Assembly (NCBI GenBank): GCA_002436105.1
Contig: DIXU01000008.1
Coordinates: forward strand, 145,979-209,978
DNA from: Candidatus Aminicenantes bacterium UBA6072
GTDB taxonomy: Bacteria; Acidobacteriota; Aminicenantia; UBA2199
Reading direction: 5' to 3'
Length of the DNA stretch: 64,000 bases
Positions 29,949 through 64,000 of this stretch are shown here, piece by piece. The translations under genes and the position numbers were made by a program. The first letter of the stretch is position 1. Each line of letters opens with the position of its first letter. The notes under the pieces are model-generated. The model was given only the letters and a program-made list of their open reading frames with translations. It ran no database searches and had not been told where the DNA came from.

Positions 29949-31805
29949 TCACCTGCCCGGTTTACATACCTTGCCGGTCGCCTGCCACGACGGTGCCAGC
30001 CAGGCGTGCCCCAGGATGCGGTATTCGACCAGCGGCGGCAGGTAAGCGTTCATCCAGTTGCTGTGCTTCCAGCTGTAGTGGAAGAAGCGGCGCTCCCGGG
30101 GCCGGTCAACCGGAATGCTGAAGAGCGGCTCGCCGCTGCCTTGCTTTTCCATCCCCAGCTCGTCGAAGATCGTGGCCGGGACGTCCGCCAGGGATGCGGG
30201 CGCATCCGTGATCCTGAGCTCCCCCCGGTCGCCCGGGCGCTTGGCCAGCAGGAGGGGGATGCCCGATCGCAACACGCGGTCGAAGCCCGGGGCAGCCGCG
30301 GCACCGGCTTCCCCCAGGTCGGGTGGCACGCGCACATCGTAGGCGCCAAAAGGATGACCGTGGTCGCCGAGGATGAAGATCAGCGCCTGGTCGTAGATGC
30401 CCATCTCCCTCAGCCCGTCCAGGAACAGCCGCACCAGCTTGAGCTCCCCGCGCGCCAGGTCGGTGAGGTTGGCGCGGTTCAGCGGCAGGTTGACCCGCTC
30501 GAAGTCCGCGTTCATCTGGATGGGCTCGTGCGGGCCGCGCCAATGGTAGAGCTTGAAGACATGGCTCTCGTTCACGGCCGCCGCCTGCATCAGGAAATTG
30601 GCGATGAAGCGCGAGTCGGAGTTCACCGGCAGCGAATCGCGGACCAGATCCACCCCGCGCATGTGGTTCCTGGAGCTGACATGGGGAAACTTGCGGCGCT
30701 GCGCCAGCCGCGAGCGGATCGCCTTCAGCGATCTCGGCGGCGGTTCGTCCTCGTTCAGCAGGTTGGCCAGGACGTCCTTGCGGATCCAACGTGACAGGAA
30801 CCAATGACCGTCATGGTAGATCACGCGCTTGAGCAGATGAGGCAGATGACGGAACAGGGTCAGATCAATCAGCCACACCAGCCTGGAGTCGCTCATGCGC
30901 CGGGTTCTTTTTTTGATGTTGGATAAAACCGCCGGGTCAAAGTAAATCGTGTTGGGCACCAGGGGGACGAGGTGAACCTGCCAGCCGCGCCGGGTCAATT
31001 GGTACGGGACCGAGGAGGGAGAACTGTAGGCTTGGGCGATGAAGCTCTGGATGGGCACGGAATTGGAGTAATACTGCCCTGTCAGCAGCAAGGGAATGGA
31101 GGCGTAGGTGCTGGGGAATCCTCCCGTCGTGTTGCGGAAATAGGTGAAGTCGCCGAAAATATCCCTATACGATGGGTCGCGGTCGATGATCTCCTGGAAA
31201 ACGTCGGACTGGAAACTGTCCAGGATGAGGACGATGACGTTCCGGCGGCTTGAGAAATCGAACTCCACCATGCGATCGAACTGGTATTTCTTGAAGCTCG
31301 GCATCTCCGGCTGGCGAACGACCGTGATCGAAGTGGACAGCAGCTGGATCGCCAGGAACAGCAATGAGATCGCCTTCACCCGCCGATAAAGGAATCCCGG
31401 GCGCCACAGCGCCAGGATCAAGGCCGCGACCCACAGGGGGGTGTCGATCAGGCCATTGAGCGCCTTCTCCCCCCAGGCGATCTCGTGGCCGCTCAGGGCG
31501 CCGTACTGCCAGAGCAGGATGTTGCCCTGGAGCCACAGGAGAAGGCCGAGAGCGAGCACGAAGGCCACGCCGCGCTCGTGAAGCCGGAAGCGGCAGGGAA
31601 GCAGGAGCAGAAGCAGCGTCAATACCAGGAAAACGCCCAGGGCGATGATGCCGAGATAGGGCAGGAGATGGAAGAAGCCGAATTTGAACTCGAGGGAATT
31701 GGTCAGGAAGATCTGCGCCGGCCCGAACAGGGTCAGGGTGCAGGAAAACAGCAGCGCGGCCAGCAGGGCGCTGGGCCATTTCTTTATTTTCTGGGCAACG
31801 GGCAT
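29949..31805 (-). CDS. membrane-anchored alkaline-phosphatase-superfamily transferase (LtaS/EptA/sulfatase-like)
   Basis: About 5 N-terminal TMs then a sulfatase-fold domain with DSFQSD metal site and GDHG motif. Adjacent to LPS core genes. Confidence 0.65.
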   Translation of the reverse strand: MPVAQKIKKWPSALLAALLFSCTLTLFGPAQIFLTNSLEFKFGFFHLLPYLGIIALGVFLVLTLLLLLLPCRFRLHERGVAFVLALGLLLWLQGNILLWQYGALSGHEIAWGEKALNGLIDTPLWVAALILALWRPGFLYRRVKAISLLFLAIQLLSTSITVVRQPEMPSFKKYQFDRMVEFDFSSRRNVIVLILDSFQSDVFQEIIDRDPSYRDIFGDFTYFRNTTGGFPSTYASIPLLLTGQYYSNSVPIQSFIAQAYSSPSSVPYQLTRRGWQVHLVPLVPNTIYFDPAVLSNIKKRTRRMSDSRLVWLIDLTLFRHLPHLLKRVIYHDGHWFLSRWIRKDVLANLLNEDEPPPRSLKAIRSRLAQRRKFPHVSSRNHMRGVDLVRDSLPVNSDSRFIANFLMQAAAVNESHVFKLYHWRGPHEPIQMNADFERVNLPLNRANLTDLARGELKLVRLFLDGLREMGIYDQALIFILGDHGHPFGAYDVRVPPDLGEAGAAAAPGFDRVLRSGIPLLLAKRPGDRGELRITDAPASLADVPATIFDELGMEKQGSGEPLFSIPVDRPRERRFFHYSWKHSNWMNAYLPPLVEYRILGHAWLAPSWQATGKVCKPGR

Positions 31806-48952: not shown

Positions 48953-50656
<1,704 letters not shown>

Positions 50657-50660
50657 GCCA

Positions 50661-50712
50661 GCGCTCCCTCAGCGAGGGAACACCGCCAGTCGCCTTGCTT
50701 TCGTTTTTCCGT
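50661..50712 (+). terminator. weak intrinsic terminator after acs
   Basis: CTCCCTC-agc-GAGGGA hairpin followed by a T-rich stretch, where GC content drops. Confidence 0.35.
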
Positions 50713-50815
50713 TTTCAACGAGGACCTTCCATTCAACAATTATTCAGAAAAGAGTAGAATTCATATGAAAGGCAGTACCGGGTGACCTGTAAAACGTTAC
50801 CGAGGAGAAGACAAG

Positions 50816-51724
50816 ATGCCCACTCTGCTTTGGACAGGCACGATATCCTTCCCTTTACGGCTCATGTTGAACATGGGGAACATCATTGCCTGGATAACGG
50901 GGAATGCCCGGGACTCTTCCGCGATGAAACGGAGAATGAAAGGCGGGTACAATGGCGAATACTCTGATTATGTGCGGCAATACGACAAGTCAGCGTCATT
51001 TCATTATGAAAAAATCTCCGACTCGCTCATGCAAAATATCGATTGCCGAGGGAAAAAGGTGGTCGATGTCGGATGCGGAACGGGTATCCTCTCCCTGAAT
51101 GCCCTGGAGAAAGGGGCGGCAAAATTGGATTGCGTTGACCTGTCCAGGTTCATGCTGGAAAAGTGCAGGGAAAAAATCATTGCCAAGGGGTATTCCGCCG
51201 AGCTCATTTCCTTCCATGAGGGCGATGCGGAGAGATTGCCATTCAATGATGCCACGTATGATGTCGTCTTATTCAACATGGTCTTGGGAATGATCCCGAA
51301 TCAGCAAGAAGCCATCATTGAGTTGGCGAGGATTCTTCGCCCTGGCGGTACCATCGCGCTATCAGCGCATGGTCCCGCTTATTATAGGGAAGCAATAGAA
51401 GCCGGGGTGAAAGCAATGAATTTGCGCTATTTTTTGGGTCATCGCTTTGAATATTGGCCGCGGGATGAAAACGGGATAAAAGCATTTTTCAGGCTCGCGG
51501 GCCTGGATGACACACAGACATCGCGAATGACATGGGTGGATGAATTTGAGAACGGCGGCAAGGCGTTTGATTTTTTTGCCTCGTCGACCGGGCTGTGGTG
51601 GCATCATCGCTTGCCCCCGGAGATCAGAAACAAGGAAACAGAAAAAACACGCGCGTATTTCCAGCGTAGGCATGTCACTGAAATCACCAGTGATGTGGTT
51701 TTCGCGTTTGCGTCAAAAAAGTAA
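50816..51724 (+). CDS. class I SAM-dependent methyltransferase (low-GC gene)
   Basis: VVDVGCGTGILS motif I, ILRPGG post-II motif. About 48% GC versus 65% in flanks. Confidence 0.7.
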   Translation: MPTLLWTGTISFPLRLMLNMGNIIAWITGNARDSSAMKRRMKGGYNGEYSDYVRQYDKSASFHYEKISDSLMQNIDCRGKKVVDVGCGTGILSLNALEKGAAKLDCVDLSRFMLEKCREKIIAKGYSAELISFHEGDAERLPFNDATYDVVLFNMVLGMIPNQQEAIIELARILRPGGTIALSAHGPAYYREAIEAGVKAMNLRYFLGHRFEYWPRDENGIKAFFRLAGLDDTQTSRMTWVDEFENGGKAFDFFASSTGLWWHHRLPPEIRNKETEKTRAYFQRRHVTEITSDVVFAFASKK

Positions 51725-51843
51725 AGGCACGCAATAAAGCGAATGCAGCCGGCACTGAAAGCCGCGCGATCGAGCAGCGGCGTCAAGAAAAGAGTGAAGA
51801 TAATGAATCTGAAGGTACCAGAAATCACCAATTCCGAAAAAAG

Positions 51844-52512
51844 CTAATCCAGCAGATCCTCGATCCTTCTGGCCGCGGCGAAGAGGTCGGGCTCGACCCA
51901 GTCGGCTTCGGAAAAGTCCTGGCCGCGGGTGTAGTCGTTGGGCACGGCAATGACCCGGCAGCCGGCGGCCTTGCCGGCCAGCACGCCGTTGCGCGCATCC
52001 TCGAGCACGACGCATTTCCCCGGCGCCAGCCCCAGGCGGCCGCAGGCGATGCGGTAGATTTCCGGATCGGGCTTGCCCCGATCCAGGCCGTCGGCCGTCT
52101 GCAGCACGGCGAAATACTTCCGGAGGCGCAGCGTGTCGAGGGCGATATCGAGGAATTCCCGCTGGGCGCCGGTGGCCACGGCCAGCTTGAGGCGGCCGTG
52201 AAAGGCGTTCAGGATCTCGTACAACCCGGGCATGGCGCCCAGGTCACGGCCCATCTTCTCCAGCATCAGCCGGTTGCGCCACTCGAGCAGTTCCTCGGGA
52301 GAGGTCTCGATCCCCAGGATCCCGCGCAGCAGGCGCAGCGACTCGATGGGCTTGCGCCCCATCAGCGGCCAGAGCTGCTCGTCGCGGATCTCCCTGCCGA
52401 AGTGGGCGGCCATCTCGCGCTCGGCGGCGAAATAGAGGCGCTCGGAATCGATCATCAGCCCGTCCATGTCGAAGATCAGGGCCTGCGGGATCAAGTGCGA
52501 TAGCTGCGGCAT
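51844..52512 (-). CDS. HAD-family hydrolase (beta-phosphoglucomutase-like phosphatase)
   Basis: IFDMDGLMIDSE motif I, GKPDPEIY, and a terminal D motif. High GC. Confidence 0.75.
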   Translation of the reverse strand: MPQLSHLIPQALIFDMDGLMIDSERLYFAAEREMAAHFGREIRDEQLWPLMGRKPIESLRLLRGILGIETSPEELLEWRNRLMLEKMGRDLGAMPGLYEILNAFHGRLKLAVATGAQREFLDIALDTLRLRKYFAVLQTADGLDRGKPDPEIYRIACGRLGLAPGKCVVLEDARNGVLAGKAAGCRVIAVPNDYTRGQDFSEADWVEPDLFAAARRIEDLLD

Positions 52513-52770
52513 CCGCCATTATACACGATCTCCTTCCCAGCGCAGCATATCTTGTTGTTTGTCCTTCAAGAAGTGTTTTGAGGTATCCTCATCGAGGAAA
52601 ATCCCGATTACGCCCTGGTGGCCTCGCGCAATTTCCTGCCGGTGCGCATCGAGCGCTCGGTCAATGAGAATCTTTGCAAGGGAAAATTTGCTCCGCTTAC
52701 AAAGGTAGTTTTATCAAAGCCAATAGAGGATGAAAACCGTTTTTAGAATTCATGGTTGACCGGCGGGGAA

Positions 52771-54669
52771 TCAGTCGTTGATCACCTGGATGGCAGGGTA
52801 AATTTTCCAACCTCTGCCTTTGGTAAAAGAAAAATGATTCATCTCGCAATGAGGCAAATTGATGGCATAGCCATTTTGTTGCTTATAGCCTTCATAAATA
52901 TGGATTTCCCGATGGATCGGGAATGAATCTTCGAGGATGGGAAAACCATTCTCGGTCATGGCGGGCAGGCAGGATTGCGAGAAAATGGTGGCTGCAATAT
53001 CTGCGGTTTGCGTTTCCCTCTGGGAAATCGTGAGCTGTGATGCGGAACGATGAGCCGGTTTGATCAGCAATAATGCCTGGCTCCATTTATCCATTTGCCT
53101 GGCATCAAAATCAGGGCGTTTGATCAGGGCATCGATTTCACTCATCGTCTCCGCAGATTCGGGGGTTTTCAGGGAAAACAGATTATCTTCTTTGTATGCG
53201 AAGCCATGGTCGGAATGGATCATTATGGTCGCATTATCGTAACGATCAAGGCGCTTCAACTCGGAAACGAATTGATCGATCAAGTTGAAACAGGCTTGAA
53301 CCTGGTCGTTGCGGGTCGTTCCTTCCGGGTGATAGACGAGTTTGCCGTCCAAAACATATGGATTATGTGGAAGATAAATATGCGCCTCGACATAATGTCC
53401 TTGGTGCCCGCGCAATTCTTCCTCAGCAAGCATTGTCCGAAATATGTTCAAGGCGGTACCGACCCGCAAGTGCGTATTGGAAAAATCGCCTTTCTTGCCA
53501 AAATTTCGGCTCAGTAAGCCCCGACCTTGGTCATAAACCTCTTTTCGTAATGGAACCGGTGCCAGTCTCAGCAGGCAGAGATCTGCGAAATTCAGGCGGT
53601 GCAGAATCTGATTATGCGCATGATGCTGGATTCTGTCAGCAACCGCGAAGGACACCTTTCTGAATGCAGGCTCATTTCTTTTAAAACTCGCATTCCCATA
53701 AAGGGAAGTCAGCCAACCGTTTTCCAGCATTCGTTCGGAAATGGTTGGAATGGCTGCATTCAAAATCCACTCCCGCATATTCCCACCTTTAAAAAATGAG
53801 CCGGTTTTGCAGCATGTCACCGATGGCTGAGTCCATAAATAGTTTGCTCTATTTTTCGGATAAAAAATGAAGTCTTTTAAGGTTCTTTGGTGCTTGCTTT
53901 TTGGATAGCATGTTTGAAATTCTTGTGAACCGAAACTGTCAAAAAGCAGCCGGTAGATGTTGCCGCCGGTAATGGTCGCTTGGGGAATGGGATAAGTGAT
54001 TTTTTTGGTTGGATCGGCATAACCATGGTCTGAATGACTTCCCTTGACATCCAATTTCACCAGCAGCAGGATGAGTATCAAAATGGCTATTGTTCCGCCC
54101 ATCGCTCGCAGCAATTTCCGCGGCAAACGAATGAAAGCGAATAGCAGCAGCAAAAATATCAAGCACTGCAGCAAAGTCGCAGCCACAGGTTCAAGCGGTG
54201 TCCATTTGTCCTCCATCCCGCTCGGGGATGACATGCGCAACGGGAAAAGGATTTGCGACAGGTAGACAAACAGCCCAATGAAAAAGAACAACCGGCTCAG
54301 TCGTGAGCGCCACAATGGAGAAAACGTGAACGAAAGAAATAAAAGAACCCCCATGCTTGCGCCGGCGGCAATCAAAAAGGAGTGCAATACATCGCTGGGG
54401 AATTCATTCAGGTTACCCAGGAACAATTCCACCGGAATGGAAATGAATAAAATGGTGGGCAGGAAGCTGGCCAGTGCCATATCACTGAGCCGGTCAATCA
54501 GCAAACTCTTGTGATTTTTCACAAGCCCCCCCTGTGCCATCCGCCAACATTTTATATAATTTTTTCTTTCCGTCAATATAGTTTCAATTGCCGATGGGGT
54601 GCCGATACTGCATGACAATAAATGGTTCTCTTTCCCCATATTTCCGCAAGTTGGGCTTGAAATTTCCAT
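52771..54669 (-). CDS. membrane-anchored LtaS/EptA/sulfatase-like transferase, low-GC paralog of 29949..31805
   Basis: Multi-TM N-terminus then a sulfatase-fold domain (HSDHGF). True start may be an internal Met (MAQGGL or MALASF). Confidence 0.6.
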   Translation of the reverse strand: MEISSPTCGNMGKENHLLSCSIGTPSAIETILTERKNYIKCWRMAQGGLVKNHKSLLIDRLSDMALASFLPTILFISIPVELFLGNLNEFPSDVLHSFLIAAGASMGVLLFLSFTFSPLWRSRLSRLFFFIGLFVYLSQILFPLRMSSPSGMEDKWTPLEPVAATLLQCLIFLLLLFAFIRLPRKLLRAMGGTIAILILILLLVKLDVKGSHSDHGYADPTKKITYPIPQATITGGNIYRLLFDSFGSQEFQTCYPKSKHQRTLKDFIFYPKNRANYLWTQPSVTCCKTGSFFKGGNMREWILNAAIPTISERMLENGWLTSLYGNASFKRNEPAFRKVSFAVADRIQHHAHNQILHRLNFADLCLLRLAPVPLRKEVYDQGRGLLSRNFGKKGDFSNTHLRVGTALNIFRTMLAEEELRGHQGHYVEAHIYLPHNPYVLDGKLVYHPEGTTRNDQVQACFNLIDQFVSELKRLDRYDNATIMIHSDHGFAYKEDNLFSLKTPESAETMSEIDALIKRPDFDARQMDKWSQALLLIKPAHRSASQLTISQRETQTADIAATIFSQSCLPAMTENGFPILEDSFPIHREIHIYEGYKQQNGYAINLPHCEMNHFSFTKGRGWKIYPAIQVIND

Positions 54670-54747
54670 GCTCCTTCGAGACTGAATCCACGCTGCGCGA
54701 GCATAAGGTTATGGCCGGGCGGCTGTGGCGGGCAATCCCGGCCCAAC

Positions 54748-54950
54748 GAACATGGAGGCGGTCAAGGCTTCATCTCCCTAACGCCCGGCTTCCATGCCTC
54801 CAAGATGCTCGAACTGGACATGATGGACTTTTCCGCCAGACGCTCTTGTCGCTGGCCTTTCTCCGAGAAATCAAATTCATGCCCGGGCTGCCCAAAAACA
54901 CCCGGGCAGGGTCACGGGCCGCGTACGGGTCACCTGATCGTGGGGCAAGT
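54748..54950 (+). pseudogene. degenerate copy of the acs 3' end (frameshifted, premature stop)
   Basis: About 70% nt identity to 50416-50620. Translation PGFHASKMLELDMMDF...PGCPKT versus acs PGFQASKMLELDIMNF...PGLPKT, broken by indels. Confidence 0.7.
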
Positions 54951-55056
54951 AGACCACCGGCATTTACACCCTGGAAAACGGCTGCAGCTCCCGCTATCGC
55001 CCGCCGCATCGGGATCCGCGATCGTTGCGGATCGAGAAATCTTGCCGACCGCTCCC

Positions 55057-57819
55057 CTACTTCTCCGGCGGAACAGCCAGGGAGCGGTAAATTCCGGAAT
55101 CGACGAAAGCACGATGGAAGCTTTCGCCGCTCAGTTCGCGTACCGTCGGCAGCCGGCGCAGGTAATCGTGGGTGCGGAGGATCAGGTCCCGGTCCATCAG
55201 CTTGGCCGCCGCCTCGGGCAGGGATTGAAAATAAAAAGGGTACTCTGCCCCCAGGTATTCCACCACCGACTCCAGGGGATTGATCAGCAGCGGCGTGTAG
55301 CGCACCATGCATTCGACGATGGCATTGCAGGCGGACGAGTCGTACAGGAACATGAAGACGACGTTCCGGCTCAGCAGCCAGTCATATTCCTGGTTGGACA
55401 GGCAGGGGATGGTCACGACGGAGGAGAGATCCACGTGGACGAAAGTGCCCTCGCGGACCAACATCTCCTTTTCTTTGGCCATCAGCGCGGGGAGGCTGGG
55501 ATGGCCGACGTCCAGAAAGACTTTTTTGAAGTCGGTTTTGGGCAGCTGGTGGATCGCGTGCAGCCGCCGCAGCCACCACCCCACCTGGACGATCATTTTA
55601 TCCGCGTTGGCGGCGAACGCCTCCGGGGACCATTTCAAATCGGGCGTCTCGCTGGGCAAGCGCAGCGTCTCCACCGGGATCTTCAGCATCTCCATCAGAT
55701 GCCTCTGGTGATACCGGGAAAAGGCGAAAAGCCCGCGGCACCAGGGCAGGCTTTTCCGCCAGGATTCCGAGGCGAAGATGGCCGGGTTGCTCTGTTCGGG
55801 ATGGAACCACTCGGGCAGGCGCGGCGGGACATGGATGAAGCCGATCCAGGGCGTTTCGTGGCCCTGATTGCCCTGGGGCAGCCAGGAAAAGGTCCTCTCG
55901 ATGAACGCGTCGAGCTCGACGCCCCGGGGATGGTGCAGCCCCAGCAGGAAGCGCAGCCCGTATTTCAATCCGCTGCGATGAAGCCCGAAATCCAGGCGCA
56001 GCTGGTCGGCCAAAGCGATCTTCCTCTCCCCGGCGGGAGGCATGGCGGCCAGGCTGGCGATCTCGCTTTCGGGCAGCCTTCGTTCCGCCTGCCGCGCTTT
56101 CAGGCTTTGCAGGAACTTCTTCCCCATGCGCAACGGCAGCAGCAGGAACCGGCCCAGGCGGAACGAATGGCTGTTCCGGAGGATGGCCACGTTGTTCCGC
56201 AGCAGGGAGATCTCCGCGGTTTTTTCCCTCAGCGCTCCGTTCAACTCCCCGATCGTCCGCTCATTCTCCTGCAGGTCATTCTTCAGCCGCCCGATCGACA
56301 ATTCCCTCTCTGCCAGCACACCCGTCAGTGCTTGGCTTTTCTCGCCTACTCGATCCAACTCGCCGGATAAGTGCGCGATCTCCATTTCCCTTCCCTGCAG
56401 TGCGGCCTTCAAGGCATCGATCTTCCGATTTTTCTCGATCCCGTCACTTTGCAGCCGCCAGAGCGATGCGTTTTCCTCGGTCAGCGTGCCGCTGAGCGTT
56501 TCGATCTTCCGGTCCCTCTCCTTCAGGTCGCCTTGCAGTCGCCCGATCGTCCCTTCCCTTTCGGCCAGCGCGCCCTTCAGCTCCTCGATCTCCCTTCTTC
56601 TCTCCCCCACCTCCGTGGCTCCCCGGGCAAGCGAATCGGAGAATCGCGAAACCTGCTCATTCCTGACCTTCAGCTCCGCGACCAGGCCGTCGATCGTCTC
56701 CACTTTCTTTCGCCAGCCGTCCAGCAACCGGTCCGTCATTCTCTCCGCGAGTCTTATCCAATCGCCATTCCTTCCGTCCTCCAGGATATTCCTGGATCTG
56801 ACCGGCTTCACCGCTTCCGCGGCCCGCAGCCGGGTGGCGATCCCGGCCGGAAGCCGCCTGGCGGCCTCCCGGGAAAGCACATGCGGCTGGTTGCCGGCGA
56901 TCAAGCCCTGCACTTGGTCCTCGATCGCCGCCATGGCCTCCGGCGGCAGGGGAAAGGCCGAATAGCGCGTGATATGGCAGTCGCTGAAATCCAGGGAGCC
57001 GGCTTTTTTACCGCCGAGCCAGCGCTGGACCCCGGCGCGGTAGGCGTGGTCAGCGGACAGGGCATTGATGTCCCAGAGCATGTCCGCATGCGTGGCGTTC
57101 TCGAGCAGTGCCAGCAGCCAAAGGTAATAGAAGATGAAGTACTTCTCTTTTTCTTCGTACGCCTGGCTCAGGACCCGGTAGAACGATTCTTCATCGGCAT
57201 AGTCGGAGGAATCGAATTTCAGCAACGGCAGCGCATCCCATAAGGGGCGGATAAGGTCATGTTCACGGTTTTTGCTCATGGCGATGATATCCATCAGGAA
57301 GAACGCGTCATAGCCTGTCCGCTCGCGAAGGGCCGCGTACGACTGCCATTGATCCCTCGGGTCGCGGTGGAGATAGATGTTCAATGAACGGGGATAGGCG
57401 GCCTTGAACCAGGCGCTGCGCAGCGCCGTGCGGTTGAACTGGAACAGCGGTACGCGGGGGCCGCTGGCCTGGATCAGAAAGTCGATATATTTTTTCTGTT
57501 CGGAATCGGCCTCGCTGCCCGCCTGGCAGAACCAGTCGAAGCTCAGTTCCTTCCTGAAAAAAGGCACGCCGGGGATTCCGGGCCTCAGTAGGGTTTCGTA
57601 TTCGTACAGATAGTGCCGGTCGAGCTCCGGGTGTCCCGCCGCCTTGAAATTGCGGGTCAGGACATCCTGGACGTTGTCCACGGTCACGCCCCCGAGAAGC
57701 TGATGGAACGGCTCGTAATAACAGACGTAGCCCGGAAGCTGGCGGAACTTGTTCCAGACATAGGTGCTGCCGGTGCGGAACAGGGCATGGATGAAAATCG
57801 GGCGCGCTTTCATGTTCAC
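55057..57819 (-). CDS. sulfotransferase-like P-loop domain + repetitive coiled-coil spacer + C-terminal domain (920 aa)
   Basis: N-terminal IFIHALFRTGSTYVW (5'-PSB-like P-loop). Residues about 395-560 form heptad-rich degenerate about 28-aa repeats. RBS-less, possibly leaderless. Confidence 0.6.
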   Translation of the reverse strand: MNMKARPIFIHALFRTGSTYVWNKFRQLPGYVCYYEPFHQLLGGVTVDNVQDVLTRNFKAAGHPELDRHYLYEYETLLRPGIPGVPFFRKELSFDWFCQAGSEADSEQKKYIDFLIQASGPRVPLFQFNRTALRSAWFKAAYPRSLNIYLHRDPRDQWQSYAALRERTGYDAFFLMDIIAMSKNREHDLIRPLWDALPLLKFDSSDYADEESFYRVLSQAYEEKEKYFIFYYLWLLALLENATHADMLWDINALSADHAYRAGVQRWLGGKKAGSLDFSDCHITRYSAFPLPPEAMAAIEDQVQGLIAGNQPHVLSREAARRLPAGIATRLRAAEAVKPVRSRNILEDGRNGDWIRLAERMTDRLLDGWRKKVETIDGLVAELKVRNEQVSRFSDSLARGATEVGERRREIEELKGALAEREGTIGRLQGDLKERDRKIETLSGTLTEENASLWRLQSDGIEKNRKIDALKAALQGREMEIAHLSGELDRVGEKSQALTGVLAERELSIGRLKNDLQENERTIGELNGALREKTAEISLLRNNVAILRNSHSFRLGRFLLLPLRMGKKFLQSLKARQAERRLPESEIASLAAMPPAGERKIALADQLRLDFGLHRSGLKYGLRFLLGLHHPRGVELDAFIERTFSWLPQGNQGHETPWIGFIHVPPRLPEWFHPEQSNPAIFASESWRKSLPWCRGLFAFSRYHQRHLMEMLKIPVETLRLPSETPDLKWSPEAFAANADKMIVQVGWWLRRLHAIHQLPKTDFKKVFLDVGHPSLPALMAKEKEMLVREGTFVHVDLSSVVTIPCLSNQEYDWLLSRNVVFMFLYDSSACNAIVECMVRYTPLLINPLESVVEYLGAEYPFYFQSLPEAAAKLMDRDLILRTHDYLRRLPTVRELSGESFHRAFVDSGIYRSLAVPPEK
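56142..56637. repeat. degenerate tandem coding repeats (about 84 nt unit) specifying the coiled-coil spacer
   Basis: Repeated units visible on the plus strand (…cagccgcccgatcg…ccttcaag/ctgcag…) and as a repeated SxSxxPxSxSI pattern in the shadow frame. Confidence 0.55.
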
Positions 57820-57899
57820 CTCAATTCATCGCTGCGGCCGGGATACTGAGCGTTCGTCAACATTCCGACCTCCCCTGCCATCCAGTATATCACAAGCGT

Positions 57900-59330
57900 T
57901 CATTCGCCGACGATGATTTCAACCCGATGCGGATGCCCGTCGGCGTCGGGGTCGAGTACCCGGTTGACGCGCACGAAAACGAGAGAATGAGAGCCCTGCT
58001 CGACACGATGGACATTCCGCACCCGCGCTTCCCCGGCGGCTGCAAATTTCAGCCGGTCCCCGGCCCTGACCGGCAGGGACGCATCCCTGGCGACATCCAG
58101 CAAGAACAGGTTCTTTCTTTCCCGGTGGATGCCGTTCGACCACTTGCCGTTCGTAAATCGGCTGATTGGATGCGACCGGGGCAATTCAGCGCGCCGCGCT
58201 CCATTGCCATGGTTGCAATACGCCTGCGCCAGCTTCCGCGAGAATTCTCCGGCGCGGGACATCTTAAGATGGAAATAATCCGGGATGTCGTCATCGGCAT
58301 ACGAGAAATCGGTTGTCAGCAGCGCAACGCCCCATTTTTTGAACTGTTCCCTTATTATGGCTTTATTCCTCTCATGGTTCGGCGTCGCGTAGGCCTTGAG
58401 TTCCATGGAATAAGCCGGCAGGTTTACGAAAAACACCTCCCCGCCCTGCCTCTTGATCAAGCGGACGATATCCGCCAGCACGCTGCCGTCCCAGCGGTTG
58501 AGAATCGGCCGGCGACTCGCTGCCAGCGATTGATAGTATCGCCGCGCGCTTTTCTTGGCCCTCTCCATGGTTTTCGCGTCGGTCATGATCCCGCCGATCG
58601 CCTGGATCACGGGCCTTGGCTCGGGCGGGAGCGGAGGCAGGCGCAACAGCAGGTTCGCTACCCGGTAGAGCATTTTTTGCCCCTGCGCCTCGAATTCATG
58701 CCTGACCCGTTCCCGATTGCTGACGATTTTTGAGCTTCCCAGCAGGAATTTCGCCGTCACCAGGAATTTGTCCGTCCATGCGGTTCCCTTGGAGCGCCAG
58801 AAGGGCAAGAGGTCGGGGAAGCGCAGCAGAGGCACGAGAAGCTCCGGCTGGCGGTTGAACCATATGGACTTCCAATTGCCGTGATATTGATAAAGAGGGG
58901 CATCCGACATGGCTTCAGCGAACAAGGTCACGCCTTTCAGGGATTCCGGGTATCTGCGCAGCAGGTTGCGCAGCCCAAGGTAATGAAGCTGGGGCGAGGA
59001 GAAGCCCCTGCCCAGGTTGACGGAGACGATCCTTCGCTGCCGAACCTTCGCCATCTCCACGCTGAAAGCCTTCTCGATGAAGGCGGCCGCCACCTTGGAC
59101 GAACCGACAAAGGCAAAATCGATCCTGCCCCGCCTGGCGATCGCTTCGGCGCGGGCATACCACAGGGGAGCCGCCACATCGCTCTTTCGCAGCAAATATT
59201 CAACGGCGACCAGGATCAGGAGTGGGATGACCACCCACTGGGAACGGACGAGCAGCCTTCGTAATACCGGTTTTCCGGCCTTGGAAACTGGAGAAGACGG
59301 CGGCACCATCGAGTCCTCAGAACCGGGCAT
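57900..59330 (-). CDS. membrane-anchored hypothetical protein, likely MBOAT partner (DltD/AlgJ-like role)
   Basis: N-terminal TM then a large extracytoplasmic domain. 14-nt overlap with the MBOAT gene. Confidence 0.5.
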   Translation of the reverse strand: MPGSEDSMVPPSSPVSKAGKPVLRRLLVRSQWVVIPLLILVAVEYLLRKSDVAAPLWYARAEAIARRGRIDFAFVGSSKVAAAFIEKAFSVEMAKVRQRRIVSVNLGRGFSSPQLHYLGLRNLLRRYPESLKGVTLFAEAMSDAPLYQYHGNWKSIWFNRQPELLVPLLRFPDLLPFWRSKGTAWTDKFLVTAKFLLGSSKIVSNRERVRHEFEAQGQKMLYRVANLLLRLPPLPPEPRPVIQAIGGIMTDAKTMERAKKSARRYYQSLAASRRPILNRWDGSVLADIVRLIKRQGGEVFFVNLPAYSMELKAYATPNHERNKAIIREQFKKWGVALLTTDFSYADDDIPDYFHLKMSRAGEFSRKLAQAYCNHGNGARRAELPRSHPISRFTNGKWSNGIHRERKNLFLLDVARDASLPVRAGDRLKFAAAGEARVRNVHRVEQGSHSLVFVRVNRVLDPDADGHPHRVEIIVGE

Positions 59331-60762
59331 AGATGAAATCCTGGGAGGCAGGCGCGAAAAAAACGATCAGCAGCAGGATCAAGGCCGTGACCAGGGCGGG
59401 ACCCAGCCCGTATCTCCAGCCCGGAATGCTCCGGGGGTCATCGCGGCTGCAGCCCAGTGATTCAAGCCCCCAGAGGATGAAGCAGTAAAAAAGAGGCATG
59501 AAAAGCATTTTGATATCGGCGGCGGCCGGCGGGAAATCGACGAAGATCCGGCGCAGGAAATCCCAGGCCTGGCCCAGGCTATGCGCCCGGAAGATGAGCC
59601 ACCCCAAGGCGGTCAGGTGAAAAAAAACGAATGCTTTCGCCAGCCGCAGAAACCCGGATCGGCTGCGCCTCTTTTTTCTGCGCCGGACCAAAAGATGATG
59701 CAAGGCAATGAGGATGCCGTGGTAGCCGCCCCAGACGACGAAGGTCCAGGCGGCGCCGTGCCAAAGGCCGGCGAGGAGCATGGTGCCGGTGATGCCGATC
59801 ACGTATCCCCAGTCTTCGACTTTCAGCTTCAGGGCCGGTTTTTCAACATGCCGCATCACGGCGTAGGCGATGGGCAGGAATAAATAATCCCTGAGCCAGG
59901 TGGAGAGCGTGATGTGCCAGCGTTGCCAGAATTCCACCGGGTTTGCGGCCAGGTAGGGGCGGTCGAAATTCAACGGGGTTTCGAATCCCAGGAGCTTGCC
60001 GATGCCGCGGGCAATATCCGAGTAGCCGCTGAAATCGCAGTAGATCTGGAAGGAGAATGCATAGGTCGCCAGGAGAACATGGAATCCGGAAACGGAGCCG
60101 CCGCCATCGAACACGTCATGCACGACGAGCGCGAGGTTGTCGGCCACGACCGCTTTCTTGAAGAGGCCCCAAAGGATCAACCAGGAACCCTGGATCATCT
60201 TGTCCCTTGACAGGGACCGGGGAGCATGCAATTGGGGGAGAAAGTGGGCGGCGCGCTCGATGGGACCGGCCAGGAGCTGCGGAAAGAAGGAAACGTAAAG
60301 GGCGTAATCGAAAAAATTGCCGGTGGGTTCCAGCTGCCCGCGATAGACGTCGATGGTGTAGGTCAGGGTCTTGAAGGTATAGAAGGACAATGCCGCGGGC
60401 ACGATGATGTGCAGCGCCGGTTCGGGCAGCCCGAGGCCCAGCATTCGCGAAAATCCAACGAGGCTGGATATGAAGAACCCCAGGTACTTGAAGAGGAACA
60501 GGATCCCCAGGTTGACGGCCAGGCTGATCCCCAGGTAGCGCCGCTTCTTGGCCATGCCGTCGGCGAGGTGGATCTTCCGCGCCACCAGGAAGTCCACCGC
60601 GGTGGAGAAAAGGATCAGGAACAGGAAGCGCGGGTCCAGCGCACCGTAGAACGCATAGCTGGCGGCCAGCAGCAGGCGGTTTTGCTTTTTTTGTGAAAAA
60701 AAACTATGGAGCACGAGGACAAGGCCTATGAAGAGAAAGAACTGCGCAGAGTGAAAGGACAA
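59317..60762 (-). CDS. MBOAT-family membrane O-acyltransferase (AlgI/DltB-like)
   Basis: Polytopic. Conserved FWQRWHITLSTWLRDY with catalytic His, and LWHGAAWTF. Confidence 0.8.
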   Translation of the reverse strand: MSFHSAQFFLFIGLVLVLHSFFSQKKQNRLLLAASYAFYGALDPRFLFLILFSTAVDFLVARKIHLADGMAKKRRYLGISLAVNLGILFLFKYLGFFISSLVGFSRMLGLGLPEPALHIIVPAALSFYTFKTLTYTIDVYRGQLEPTGNFFDYALYVSFFPQLLAGPIERAAHFLPQLHAPRSLSRDKMIQGSWLILWGLFKKAVVADNLALVVHDVFDGGGSVSGFHVLLATYAFSFQIYCDFSGYSDIARGIGKLLGFETPLNFDRPYLAANPVEFWQRWHITLSTWLRDYLFLPIAYAVMRHVEKPALKLKVEDWGYVIGITGTMLLAGLWHGAAWTFVVWGGYHGILIALHHLLVRRRKKRRSRSGFLRLAKAFVFFHLTALGWLIFRAHSLGQAWDFLRRIFVDFPPAAADIKMLFMPLFYCFILWGLESLGCSRDDPRSIPGWRYGLGPALVTALILLLIVFFAPASQDFIYARF

Positions 60763-61623
60763 CTATTTCCTCAATATCACTTCGAGGACACCGGTGGAAT
60801 AATTGCCGATCGCAGCGGATTGTCCGGGCAGGGAAATTCCGGAGAGCGGCCGAGATGCCATGTCTTTAATCGCGGCCAGTTTGCGTAAAACGCCTCTGGG
60901 CGGATTCCCCCATGAAGTTTCCCTCAGCTTTTCGATGGTGAGTTTTGCTTCCCTCAGGATACGGACAATGGTTTCAACCGGGTAGCGGTTCAGCATGGGG
61001 TTGTCGTAGATCCAGTCTGCGATCTTCTGGGCATGAACCTGGGGGATGCCCTCTGTCTCCAGGTAGCGCCTCATTTCGTCCTTATTGTAAATCAAATGAT
61101 ACCAATCGGGGATGGGATTGTTGGCATTGAATTCATACTTGACACCGTCGGCTTGCACCCAGACATGATGCCCAAGGCGGCAAGACCACAACGGCCCCCC
61201 GTGCAAATAGGCCCGGCCGCCTCTTGTCAGCACCCGGCATATTTCCGCTAAAACCTTATCCAGGTCATGCAGGTGCTCCAGGACGGCAATGCCGAAAACG
61301 ATGTCGAACTCCTCCCCGGGAAATTTCAAATCGCGAGCGTCCATATTGGAATAATCGATATCCGTATCGATTGGCTTGCTGGCGATATCCGTCCGATTGT
61401 TGATAACGCATATTTTTCTTGCGCCCCGTGTGCGCAATTCTCTGGCGACGCTATAAGGCGGACTTCCTCCGATTTCCAGCACCTTCTTCCCTGTGAACGG
61501 GTATCTGGCATTAAAATAATCAATGGATTGTTTTTGATATTTCTGCAATTCAAAGCCGCTGTTTTTCATGATCTGTCGGGCAAGGCCGGCGACGGCGAAG
61601 TACAGATCGGACATGGGCCACAA
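60763..61623 (-). CDS. class I SAM-dependent methyltransferase
   Basis: VLEIGGSPPYS motif I, DIVFGIAVLEH motif, RGGRAYL. Confidence 0.7.
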   Translation of the reverse strand: MWPMSDLYFAVAGLARQIMKNSGFELQKYQKQSIDYFNARYPFTGKKVLEIGGSPPYSVARELRTRGARKICVINNRTDIASKPIDTDIDYSNMDARDLKFPGEEFDIVFGIAVLEHLHDLDKVLAEICRVLTRGGRAYLHGGPLWSCRLGHHVWVQADGVKYEFNANNPIPDWYHLIYNKDEMRRYLETEGIPQVHAQKIADWIYDNPMLNRYPVETIVRILREAKLTIEKLRETSWGNPPRGVLRKLAAIKDMASRPLSGISLPGQSAAIGNYSTGVLEVILRK

Positions 61624-61674
61624 AAGGATGGTCGTACGGGGCTCAAGGATGTGCCGCCTGGCTCTCGAATCCGC

Positions 61675-64000
61675 TCACTCCAACGCCGCGGCGCGGACCC
61701 ATTTTTTGCGTGCTTTTTCCCGCTCAGCCGGCGGATAGAAGTGCCGGGCATAGCGCGAAGAATAGATCCGGTCGAACAACTCTTCCGAAAGGGAAAATTT
61801 CCGCAGAACGGCCTGGTATTCATTCCAGTAAGACTTGCTCTTGGCGGTATTCACCTTGATCAACTCCAGATCCGGCAGGAGCAGAAAATCGGCCATGGCC
61901 GGACGGAAACTTCGCTCCAGGTCCTCCAGCCGGATCAGCACCACGCTGACGTTCCCCTTGTTGAGGATCGTATAACCGCGGGCGAAGTCATATGGAACTG
62001 AATAAATGTCGATCCCGAAAACCTGCTCCAACTCCACGTTGAACCAGGAGCTTGAGTAATCCCGCTTTTCATCAAATTCGTGGAACACCGTGTTCATCAG
62101 TGTCCTGACCACCTTGTCGATATTGATCTTCTGCGGTGAGTCAAAGACCTCATGACGGTATACGGCGATGTTTTCAAAAAACGAGGACAACTTCACGCTC
62201 ACCGGGTCCCGGGTCATGGTGATGATCTTCCAAGGCACCCGCGTCCGGTTGGCATCGATCCATGCCCTGAGATCCCTGCTGAATTGCAGATCCTCCGCTA
62301 TCCTGGGGAGCTGCAGGGAATCAAAATATTTCAGCCAATCCGTTTTTCGCTGGATCCCCTGTTCCGACAACTGATGGACATGGAAAATGGCATGGCGGCT
62401 GTCGGCCTGCTTCAATGTCCTGTAAACCGATGACGACCCCACCTTGCCCATCTGGTAGATCAGGAGAGGAGAAGGATCTCCAGCACGTCCGACTTGGGGG
62501 AAATCCTGGGAAGATCCGGCCCGGGAGTTCAACGCCGTTTCGACCATCCGCGGGTATCTGCGATCTGTTCGAATCAAGTCCGCGTTCGGGGCGTTATTCC
62601 CGCAGGCGGCCAAAAGCGGCGATGGCGGGGCAGCCTGACCGGCAACGGATCCCTTGACGGCAACGAGATGACCGGCCAGGCCGTATTTGGCCAATAGCCG
62701 GCGGGGATAATCGATGGGAGAGAGGGGGGGCAGGAATCGCTGCAGATCCCGGCGCCGGCGATAGAACTGGATAAAAACCAGGGGATCACGGAAAAGCCAG
62801 GGCAAACCGATCCCGATCCTTCGCAGCAGTGGCAGAGGCATCGGGGCGGAACGCTGCCGGGCTTCCCTGAGCGTCTCAACCAGCCTTTCTTTCCGATAGA
62901 GGCAGATCAGTTCGCTGAGGCGCAGCTTGCGTAGGAGTTTGGGCTCGATGCGGCGGGCGGCGCGGAAGGCATGACGCACCATCATGATCAGTTCGCGCTT
63001 CCGGCTGGCCGCGTCCAGTTTGCTGATGTCGGTATTCTGCCGCTCATGGACTCTCCAGGCAGCCAGTGTGCGGGGCACATGGACGGTGTCGGCCAGCAAG
63101 GACGCTCGCATGCCCCATTCAAAATCGGCGGCCGGGCCGAATCGCGTCGAGAACAGGCCCACCCGCTCAAAAAGCCGCCTGCGGATCAACAATTGAGTCA
63201 TGGATGTATAAACAGTCCGCACGCCGCAATGCAGCACGCCGTCAAAAGGAGCGCGGCGGATGTGCGCATGATCGATCCAATCCTCAAAAAACCTCGTACT
63301 GAACAGGCGATCCCAGTTCAGGCGCGAACTTGGATCCCCATTTTCGTCAATGATGCGCAGTTTGCAATGGGCCAGGTCGCAGTCCGGGTTCTCGTCCAGC
63401 GCCCGAACCATATGCTCGAGGAAGTCAAGCTCCATGGTGTCATCGCTGGGCGCGATCAGCACGTATTCCCCCCTGGCCAGTCCGATGCAGCGGTTCCAGT
63501 TCACGTAAATGCCCCGCTGCGGCGTCTGGAAGATGCGAATGCGCGGATCCTTGGCGGCCCATTCCCGGAAGAATTCCCAGGCGCCGTCCGTGGATTGGCT
63601 GTCCACCACCACCAGCTCCCAATCGCCGAACGTCTGCCCCTGGATCGACCGCATCCGCTCGTCCAGGAAGGGCCTGTGATTCAGGTTGGGAAGCAGAATG
63701 GAAACTCGCGGCGCCGGCAGGGGCGCATCCGGGGCGTCATTGCCGGCGGACAATGTTCTCAGCCTTGCCAGCAGATCCTGCTCCGCCGCCAGGGATGCGG
63801 GAATGGGTGGCGGTGCCATCCCCCCATGAAACTCCCCGGCGGCCCGGCCCAGGTCATCCAGACCGGCAAATTCAAACAGCCCGGCCCCGTTGAACTCATG
63901 GTAGGAACGGGCGGCATGGGCGTTGGCCAAAACCGGCACTCCGGCCAGCAGCATTTCCCTGATCTTCGTCAAGGCGCCCGAGCCGGATTCCTGGAAACAG
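61675..64000 (-). CDS. multidomain glycosyltransferase: GT4-like C-terminus (runs off window) + GT2 + sulfotransferase-like domain
   Basis: Continuous frame to the window end. Encodes ESGSGALTKIREMLLAGVPVLA (GT1/GT4 C-terminal motif), VSILLPNLNHRPF...DSQSTDG (GT2, DxD), then LLIYQMGKVGSSSVYRTL (P-loop). Confidence 0.6.
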   Translation of the reverse strand, partial: CFQESGSGALTKIREMLLAGVPVLANAHAARSYHEFNGAGLFEFAGLDDLGRAAGEFHGGMAPPPIPASLAAEQDLLARLRTLSAGNDAPDAPLPAPRVSILLPNLNHRPFLDERMRSIQGQTFGDWELVVVDSQSTDGAWEFFREWAAKDPRIRIFQTPQRGIYVNWNRCIGLARGEYVLIAPSDDTMELDFLEHMVRALDENPDCDLAHCKLRIIDENGDPSSRLNWDRLFSTRFFEDWIDHAHIRRAPFDGVLHCGVRTVYTSMTQLLIRRRLFERVGLFSTRFGPAADFEWGMRASLLADTVHVPRTLAAWRVHERQNTDISKLDAASRKRELIMMVRHAFRAARRIEPKLLRKLRLSELICLYRKERLVETLREARQRSAPMPLPLLRRIGIGLPWLFRDPLVFIQFYRRRRDLQRFLPPLSPIDYPRRLLAKYGLAGHLVAVKGSVAGQAAPPSPLLAACGNNAPNADLIRTDRRYPRMVETALNSRAGSSQDFPQVGRAGDPSPLLIYQMGKVGSSSVYRTLKQADSRHAIFHVHQLSEQGIQRKTDWLKYFDSLQLPRIAEDLQFSRDLRAWIDANRTRVPWKIITMTRDPVSVKLSSFFENIAVYRHEVFDSPQKINIDKVVRTLMNTVFHEFDEKRDYSSSWFNVELEQVFGIDIYSVPYDFARGYTILNKGNVSVVLIRLEDLERSFRPAMADFLLLPDLELIKVNTAKSKSYWNEYQAVLRKFSLSEELFDRIYSSRYARHFYPPAEREKARKKWVRAAALE

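Follow-up and report, generated by a model that had tools for sequence, protein, structure and literature searches.

The arrangement described here has its closest counterparts in the Rhs 'C-terminal displacement' arrays, the orphan modules of CdiA and the orphan-immunity arrays of T6SS (PMC2935791; Kirchberger et al. 2017, PMC5361080). In these loci, fragments of the 3' or core region of a conserved gene lie in direct orientation behind the intact gene itself. They are of variable length and fall in the clade of the resident gene, and each separates a different piece of laterally acquired cargo; the newest unit adjoins the intact gene, and a dedicated recombinase is lacking. The mechanisms proposed are homologous recombination with circular intermediates, as put forward for the variable-length core fragments of Rhs arrays (Jackson et al. 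2009, PMC2935791), or homology-facilitated illegitimate recombination. A further precedent is prophage e14 in icd of E. coli, which leaves a 163-bp icd' copy (PMC6379469). Like phage 21 in the same gene, it supplies a replacement 3' end, and the original end is left as a pseudo-copy at the far edge; the prophage e14 encodes its own integrase and uses a single fixed att site.

Islands in tRNA and tmRNA genes are bounded by direct repeats of the 3' end of the gene, and the tandem accretion of integrase-less CIME beside ICEs gives arrays that are split by att repeats and in which some units lack an integrase of their own. Both need a recognisable tyrosine integrase in the array and a fixed core site; no such integrase was found at the locus under study, and a fixed core site is not apparent there. 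Defence hotspots flanked by core genes are variable slots beside a conserved gene, without mobility genes, and are usually described without a duplication of the end of the flanking gene.

In the window (the whole 64-kb stretch of DNA that was analysed, from a Candidatus Aminicenantes bacterium) the acs gene, whose product has the Pfam domains AMP-binding and AMP-binding_C and whose homologues carry the database name acetate--CoA ligase, is intact, and a degenerate direct repeat of its end lies about 4 kb downstream of the real gene (Table 1). Copies of the acs end are denoted here by F and a number, the number being the length up to the stop codon, which makes this copy F319. With the Rhs, CdiA and T6SS arrays the acs loci of the window and its relatives share each of the features listed above. 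Unlike in those arrays, in which a functional toxin tip is displaced with its immunity gene, Acs remains the same as a protein, and the homology is provided by the terminal DNA of its gene alone; moreover, the cargo consists of independent genes on either strand (defence systems, toxin-antitoxin pairs, enzymes), and the host gene encodes a housekeeping metabolic enzyme in an uncultured phylum. With e14 and phage 21 the locus has in common the protein-coding target, the supply of a replacement 3' end and the original end left as a far-edge pseudo-copy. A protein-coding target, to which the first-pass annotation had pointed, is therefore not exceptional in itself. Unlike e14, the acs locus lacks an integrase and phage genes, its repeats range from 46 to 319 bp and its cargo is a mosaic of small blocks. 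The difference from the usual defence hotspots is that the duplicated acs ends record the order of insertion. Insertion at a gene end (e14 in icd) and recombinase-free fragment arrays (Rhs, CdiA, T6SS) are known already; what sets the present case apart is the terminus of a housekeeping gene as a probable recombination handle, with independent defence and accessory cargo, in an uncultured phylum.

We consider it probable (roughly 0.6) that F319 is the former 3' end of acs, shunted downstream when incoming DNA, which brought its own acs end together with other genes, recombined into the acs terminus through this homology. The end of a highly conserved metabolic gene would then be the entry point of an accessory and defence hotspot, where each entry can leave a dated scar by which the order of acquisition is recorded, and the 'displacement array' architecture, so far a matter of polymorphic toxin loci, would extend to an ordinary housekeeping gene. 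By itself F319 is an old, inert pseudogene relic, the value of which lies in what it marks; the comparative pattern, above all the pair of loci L170 and L171, is more interesting than the fragment in the window. All data are metagenome assemblies of uncultured organisms.

Table 1. Features around acs in the window, in order of position, and gene order behind acs in related loci.
Feature	Position	Strand	Basis
Intact acs, 567 aa, conserved anchor gene	48953-50656	+	ORF; Pfam PF00501 4.9e-75, PF13193 1.1e-24
Terminal 319 nt of acs with stop codon, the segment duplicated downstream	50337-50658	+	Alignments (Smith-Waterman: pairs with 54670-54988)
Block 1, methyltransferase cassette, 49% GC, gene 50816-51724	50657-51838	+	Pfam
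Block 2, HAD hydrolase, 65-67% GC, gene 51844-52512	51839-52541	-	Pfam
Block 3, left edge, decayed C-terminal fragment of a MiaB-like radical-SAM gene (MiaB')	52570-52692	+	tblastn E 1e-10
Block 3, gene for a 583-aa membrane sulfatase-like protein, 47% GC	52771-54522	-	ORF, weak PF00884 match, homologues
F319, degenerate copy of the acs 3' terminus, probable displaced old gene end	54670-54988	+	74% identity, frameshifted
Gene for a 920-aa sulfotransferase-like/coiled-coil protein, convergent with F319	55057-57819	-	ORF, Pfam
L003: acs, AbiE, F59, methyltransferase			
L004: acs, papain-like protease + hypothetical, F178, DUF6036 nucleotidyltransferase, F87, AbiEii/AbiEi + HNH + DUF3024, F176, HAD, F46, ACP-like + Kbl			
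L005: acs, nucleotidyltransferase, F74, HAD			
L163/L164: acs, 535-aa gene, F85			
L170: acs, Avs4, F98, HNH protein + protease-like protein, F167, AbiE			
L173: acs, nucleotidyltransferase, F80, 252-aa gene, HAD			

The first-pass annotation had described a degenerate direct copy of the acs 3' end of about 200 nt. Its reality and its direct orientation stand, but the extent had to be revised: the copy is about 120 nt longer. In blastn 50337-50655 aligns with 54670-54984 over 319 columns (74.3% identity, E 1.6e-50), and the local alignment score is 131 against 11.0 +/- 1.6 (maximum 19) in shuffles and 12.5 +/- 2.1 (maximum 20) for random segments of the window, so that the similarity noted at first sight is borne out against shuffling. 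The copy spans Acs residues ~463-567, which comprise the entire AMP-binding_C domain, the tail and the position of the stop codon. It had been called a pseudogene fragment, and indeed it contains five single-base deletions, extra small indels and in-frame stops in all frames. The mismatches are distributed over the three codon positions as 22/104, 24/103 and 28/104, an even spread from which it follows that the divergence built up without selection at the protein level. Neither tblastn nor an nhmmer profile of acs 3' ends found further acs-like pieces in the window, the profile matching only 54670-54984 and giving no copy at the junction of methyltransferase and HAD or at that of HAD and MiaB'. 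The same layout of acs and F319 is present in two independent assemblies (a JGI TOLCLC contig and a Logan SRR5323176 contig) and is thus not an assembly artefact. The JGI annotation has a 61-aa gene on the opposite strand across F319 (window 54762-54963, minus strand; L001 15810-16011), a gene call that is almost certainly spurious.

Compared with the consensus of close relatives, F319 has undergone 42 GC-to-AT and 23 AT-to-GC changes, and its GC content has gone down from 66% to 60%. At the 28 sites that separate the acs genes of the close clade from the distant ones, it carries the close-clade base 19 times, the distant one 3 times and neither 6 times. Across 168 acs genes, the identity profiles of F319 and of the resident acs are closely correlated (r = 0.98). 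F319 is thus a neutrally decaying relic of the acs terminus of its own lineage, or of that of a very close relative. The possibility of a foreign acs allele was rejected, as the copy groups with the close clade at 19 of the 22 informative sites.

The DNA between acs and F319 is a mosaic of at least three blocks with GC contents of 49%, 65-67% and 45-49%. A uniform low-GC insertion, as had been suggested, is contradicted by the HAD block, which is GC-rich and an ordinary acs neighbour. Block 1 begins directly after the acs stop codon and recurs, including its leader, in L003 behind F59 (window 50599-51509 corresponds to L003 11853-12763, 83%). The HAD gene of block 2 is the usual convergent neighbour of acs in relatives and lies immediately beside it in L036 and L172; the homology with L004, L005 and L036 extends from 51839/51846 to 52529/52541. 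Block 3, of low GC, spans about 52545-54669. At its left edge only the last ~56 aa of a MiaB-like radical-SAM methylthiotransferase are found, with an in-frame stop and a 15-aa gap (queries: the radical-SAM proteins of L176 and L177). In L176-L180 the intact MiaB-like gene and the sulfatase-like gene are convergent neighbours, in a housekeeping context by purE/purD; given this natural arrangement elsewhere, the cargo of block 3 is a random piece of another chromosome that was cut within a gene. After F319, the MiaB-like fragment is thus the second pseudogene in these 4 kb to consist of a gene end. It was also considered whether the MiaB-like fragment and the sulfatase-like gene adjoin acs elsewhere, which is not so: at 53-63% identity the gene is found beside purE/purD. 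The sulfatase-like ORF is open to 54669, and a promoter scan gave a promoter-like site at 54576-54549. A second sulfatase-family membrane protein, high in GC, is encoded at 29949-31805 on the minus strand (618 aa, PF00884 7e-10) and could be the native equivalent of the 583-aa gene of low GC that was imported.

The order HAD, MiaB', sulfatase-like gene is also present in L174 and L175, two Logan contigs with 87% DNA identity. These contigs have the left junction of the acs fragment in common with the window, which places the junction before the split of the two lineages; their fragment is truncated at about -235. Where the window has the 920-aa gene after the fragment, L174 (1349-2161) has another Methyltransf_11 gene (270 aa) and a gene of 413 aa, and hence the DNA beyond the fragment was also exchanged in that lineage.

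In relatives, copies of the acs end were sought by scanning each locus with its own acs end and with the nhmmer profile. Extra copies, numbering one to five per Aminicenantes genome and 46-319 bp long, were found solely in the close clade (Acs at least 88% identical): four in L004, two in L170 and one each in L003, L005, L163, L173 and the window. All copies end on the right at the position of the stop codon, with the cargo starting at the next base, whereas the left boundaries lie at -319, -178, about -170 (F176 of L004 and F167 of L170), -98, -85, -81 to -87, -59 and -46. In all seven of these loci acs itself is intact, the gene having been reconstituted. The same cargo may be found behind the real gene in one genome and behind an F copy in another, as is the case for the nucleotidyltransferase (L005 and L173 versus L004), AbiE (L003 versus L004) and the methyltransferase block (the window versus L003). 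The nucleotidyltransferase cassette has kept the junction between cargo end and F in three genomes, and the DNA past F differs. The largest array found occupies 11705-18518 of L004 and contains F178, F87, F176 and F46. Two of these, F178 and F176, have a derived +1 change in common (GG to TCT before GCAAGATCATG), which implies that copies of the acs end have themselves been copied or targeted, besides the real gene.

Other DNA follows the acs stop directly in L083, L084 and L167, without an F copy in the available sequence. In L167 this is SocA/Panacea. In L084 (11829-13251) it is a Thoeris system (ThsB TIR and ThsA Macro, 34% GC), and in L083 (11745-14039) a methyltransferase, an IS200-like Y1_Tnp and a 149-aa gene lie between acs and HAD. 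The Acs proteins of L083 and L084 are equally similar (93%) to that of the window, and the upstream gene maps coincide, with divergence setting in right after the stop. The cargo in relatives consists of defence and toxin-antitoxin genes only, and Avs4, AbiE, Thoeris and HNH proteins are among the contents of the slot. The position next to acs thus qualifies as a hotspot for accessory and defence genes, with hypervariable contents.

A fresh insertion could be followed in L170 and L171, which belong to the same species (identical Acs protein, 99.97% identity over 11.7 kb upstream). L170 equals L171 plus 7,313 bp (L170 11705-19017), with 38% GC compared with 56% in the flanks. The insert codes for a full-length Avs4 (PADLOC 1660 bits) as well as for an HNH protein and a protease-like one; F98 lies inside it and F167 at its end, and it carries no integrase, transposase or resolvase gene. 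The intact acs of L170 differs from that of L171 at six sites, all in the last 64 nt (-64, -19, -16, -10, -4 and -2), and the stop codon TGA of L171 is TAA in L170. Conversely, F167 matches L171 exactly from -138 through the stop and over all of the 1,533 bp available downstream, whereas to the left of -139 it represents a diverged, foreign acs allele. L170 thus arose when the resident acs end and an acs-terminal segment on the incoming DNA were exchanged reciprocally somewhere in 74 bp of identical sequence (-138 to -65). The exchange interval was mapped for this one occupied/empty pair, and its length and identity are compatible with host homologous recombination or with a circular intermediate. 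The pair shows that an Avs4-bearing block arrived through 74 bp of identical acs sequence without a mobility gene, and it bears on how defence hotspots that lack the hallmarks of mobile elements get filled. Together with the repetition of the pattern in relatives, it upholds the original proposal that DNA was inserted at the acs end and that the fragment in the window marks its far edge.

That proposal went on to invoke site-specific integration into the acs 3' end, which fits the repeat lengths of 46-319 bp, the truncated MiaB-like piece and the integrase-less fresh insert of L170 less well than recombination through acs homology does. The accompanying remark that no integrase remains is correct for the window, but the loss it implied is not supported, as the recent 7.3-kb insertion in L170 came without one as well. 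Among the ~59 genes of the 64-kb window there is no integrase, resolvase, recombinase or transposase gene, nor are there recombinase genes in the F-delimited arrays of L003, L004, L163, L170 and L173; the sole transposase-like gene found is the Y1_Tnp of L083, in a block without F copies. Genes for phage, conjugation, excision or replication functions are absent from the cargo of the window, which consists of the methyltransferase, the HAD hydrolase, the MiaB-like fragment and the sulfatase-like gene. A search of the block edges for short att-like core repeats, which had been proposed for the flanks, gave chance-level matches only, and the left ends of different cassettes have no arm-like motif in common, with matches between identical cassettes only. 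An element-borne attP was not found either: when viral contigs were searched for exact matches to the acs core, two 19-nt matches turned up, both at chance level and without wider acs homology. BLAST against phages gave one irrelevant 52-nt match, and against plasmids only full acs genes on megaplasmids, with no isolated acs terminus. As to integrons and CALIN, the window has no integrase and the repeats are acs coding sequence.

Recombination through acs homology best fits the variable repeat lengths, the truncated gene at the edge of the cargo, the junctions without F, the hybrid product in L170 and the negative searches. An incoming molecule with an acs-terminal F and cargo would pair and recombine with the resident acs 3' end. 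If the molecule is a circle, one crossover would do; if it is linear, a misaligned double crossover would have the same effect. The product would consist of acs (hybrid, with an intact end), the cargo, F (hybrid, non-functional) and the old downstream DNA. The left boundary of F would be where the acs homology on the incoming DNA began, which would account for the variable F lengths; on the right every copy ends at the stop codon, since the homology between genomes goes no further. A unit of cargo plus F might subsequently be excised or copied through the flanking acs and F repeats and inserted before any acs or F, which would lead to arrays with the newest unit beside acs. New units probably form through illegitimate joins for which acs homology serves as the anchor (homology-facilitated illegitimate recombination), and this would explain the truncated chromosomal genes at block edges and the junctions without F, which are those of methyltransferase and HAD and of HAD and MiaB' in the window, and those in L083 and L167. 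The event in the window would be an old one, with the HAD, MiaB' and sulfatase-like genes and F319 assembled before the L174/L175 lineage branched off. The methyltransferase block would have joined next to acs separately, and the neutral decay of F319 followed. F copies between the blocks may have been lost or never have been present. The present acs terminus would be the incoming copy or a hybrid thereof.

Underlying this reconstruction are the observations that the acs end is duplicated, that the copy is decaying neutrally, that the DNA in between is a mosaic, that the pattern recurs in relatives, that L170 holds a reciprocal hybrid and that recombinase genes are absent; from these we infer that host homologous recombination is required, what the intermediate was and in which order the events took place. 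Some points weigh on the other side. F46 and F59 provide little length for RecA to recombine efficiently, which counts against homologous recombination, and displacement by this route does not directly explain the origin of the very first duplication.

These points leave some room for a defined insertion site at the acs terminus, entered by small integrase-less cassettes through a tyrosine or serine recombinase encoded elsewhere, with F319 as a decayed attR. Comparable cases are CIME and MGI elements mobilised in trans and IMEX elements that exploit Xer. Direct repeats of the target end do flank the inserts, the gene is always restored, and e14 in icd with its 163-bp copy is a precedent. Each F copy keeps the last ~46 bp, including the imperfect inverted repeat GAGGAGAT-CGGCGAC-ATCTCCAC, and GAGATCGGCGA is invariant in all nine of the non-window copies inspected; yet this invariant core also encodes conserved Acs residues, and its conservation may just reflect the recent origin of the copies. 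The inverted repeat, moreover, lies at -39 to -17, outside the exchange interval of L170. That interval does span -83, about which an imperfect GATC-centred palindrome, GCAAGATCATGC, is located, and the F copy of L163, the nucleotidyltransferase-linked copies (L004, L005, L173) and an internal discontinuity in F176/F178 of L004 start or change within ~6 nt of this position. The clustering could be the signature of a specific crossover site for a recombinase encoded elsewhere. A precise site-specific junction at -83 was nevertheless not upheld on inspection, as the boundaries differ by a few nt and the copies have a derived 'TGCAAG' change in common, by virtue of which common descent accounts for the clustering at least as well. 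F59 and F46 do not reach the -83 site, and the repeat lengths range from 46 to 319 bp. Given also the lack of a recombinase gene in the window, in the F-delimited cassettes and in the fresh insert, the lack of a conserved arm-like motif at different cassette ends, the truncated chromosomal genes in the cargo, the junctions without F and the viral contigs that match the acs core only by chance, we regard entry through a dedicated recombinase as rather unlikely. Equally doubtful, or slightly more so, is that the acs-terminal repeats are the working parts of a cassette system, integrase-free or with a recombinase in trans, and not passive scars. If they were, an F of about 46-180 bp would be a portable recombination site, and defence and accessory cassettes would excise, pass from one Aminicenantes strain to another and line up one after the other behind a housekeeping gene. 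Such a system would be comparable in function to an integron, with the coding end of acs as its basis, and its crossover may be specific and lie close to the GATC-centred palindrome at -83.

Two further explanations concern the history of the window alone. Methyltransferase, HAD, MiaB' and sulfatase-like gene (4 kb) may have entered in one step as a single foreign element, as would fit the single repeat pair that brackets the region, without a detectable internal F, and the composite multi-cassette inserts that move as one unit in L170. The blocks, however, differ in GC (49%, 66% and 47%) and are found apart from each other: HAD lies beside acs without the other blocks in L036 and L172, the methyltransferase block is separate, behind F59, in L003, and L174 and L175 have HAD, MiaB', the sulfatase-like gene and F, with a different methyltransferase gene beyond F. 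A one-step origin is therefore improbable. Still less credence is due to a decaying tandem paralog, by which acs was once duplicated in tandem and F319 is the leftover after deletions and insertions. F319 does fall in the clade of the resident acs, and its upstream part could have gone with the insertion of block 3. A second intact acs in relatives, which the first-pass annotation had named as the mark of such a paralog, was however found in none of ~170 related loci, each of which gave a single Acs match within flanks of up to 10 kb. The truncated state and the same left junction are already present in L174 and L175, the copies in relatives are terminal pieces of many lengths that all end at the stop codon, and in L170/L171 the copies arose through foreign DNA with a diverged allele and not by duplication within the genome. 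Displacement of the resident end through acs homology thus remains our preferred reading for F319.

Finally, canonical terminators and RNA elements were not found in or beside F319, the window having no Rfam matches, and the 64 kb contain no tRNA genes. An orthologue of the 920-aa gene sits downstream of acs and HAD in L005, and the gene is presumably the first of the flank that once followed acs directly. Between the end of F319 and the stop codon of this gene there is a perfect 7-bp hairpin (55013-55033, GATCCGC-gatcgtt-GCGGATC), which is not followed by a T-run and was not called by the terminator scan; it may be a relic of the old intergenic structure between acs and the 920-aa gene. The flank at 55057-63972 resembles a surface-polysaccharide locus, with genes for the 920-aa protein, a 476-aa protein of unknown function, an MBOAT acyltransferase, a methyltransferase (of lower GC, 52%) and a GT2 and NKWYS capsular-synthesis protein. 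The strongly negative GC and AT skew at 56000-57000 corresponds to the coiled-coil part of the 920-aa gene.
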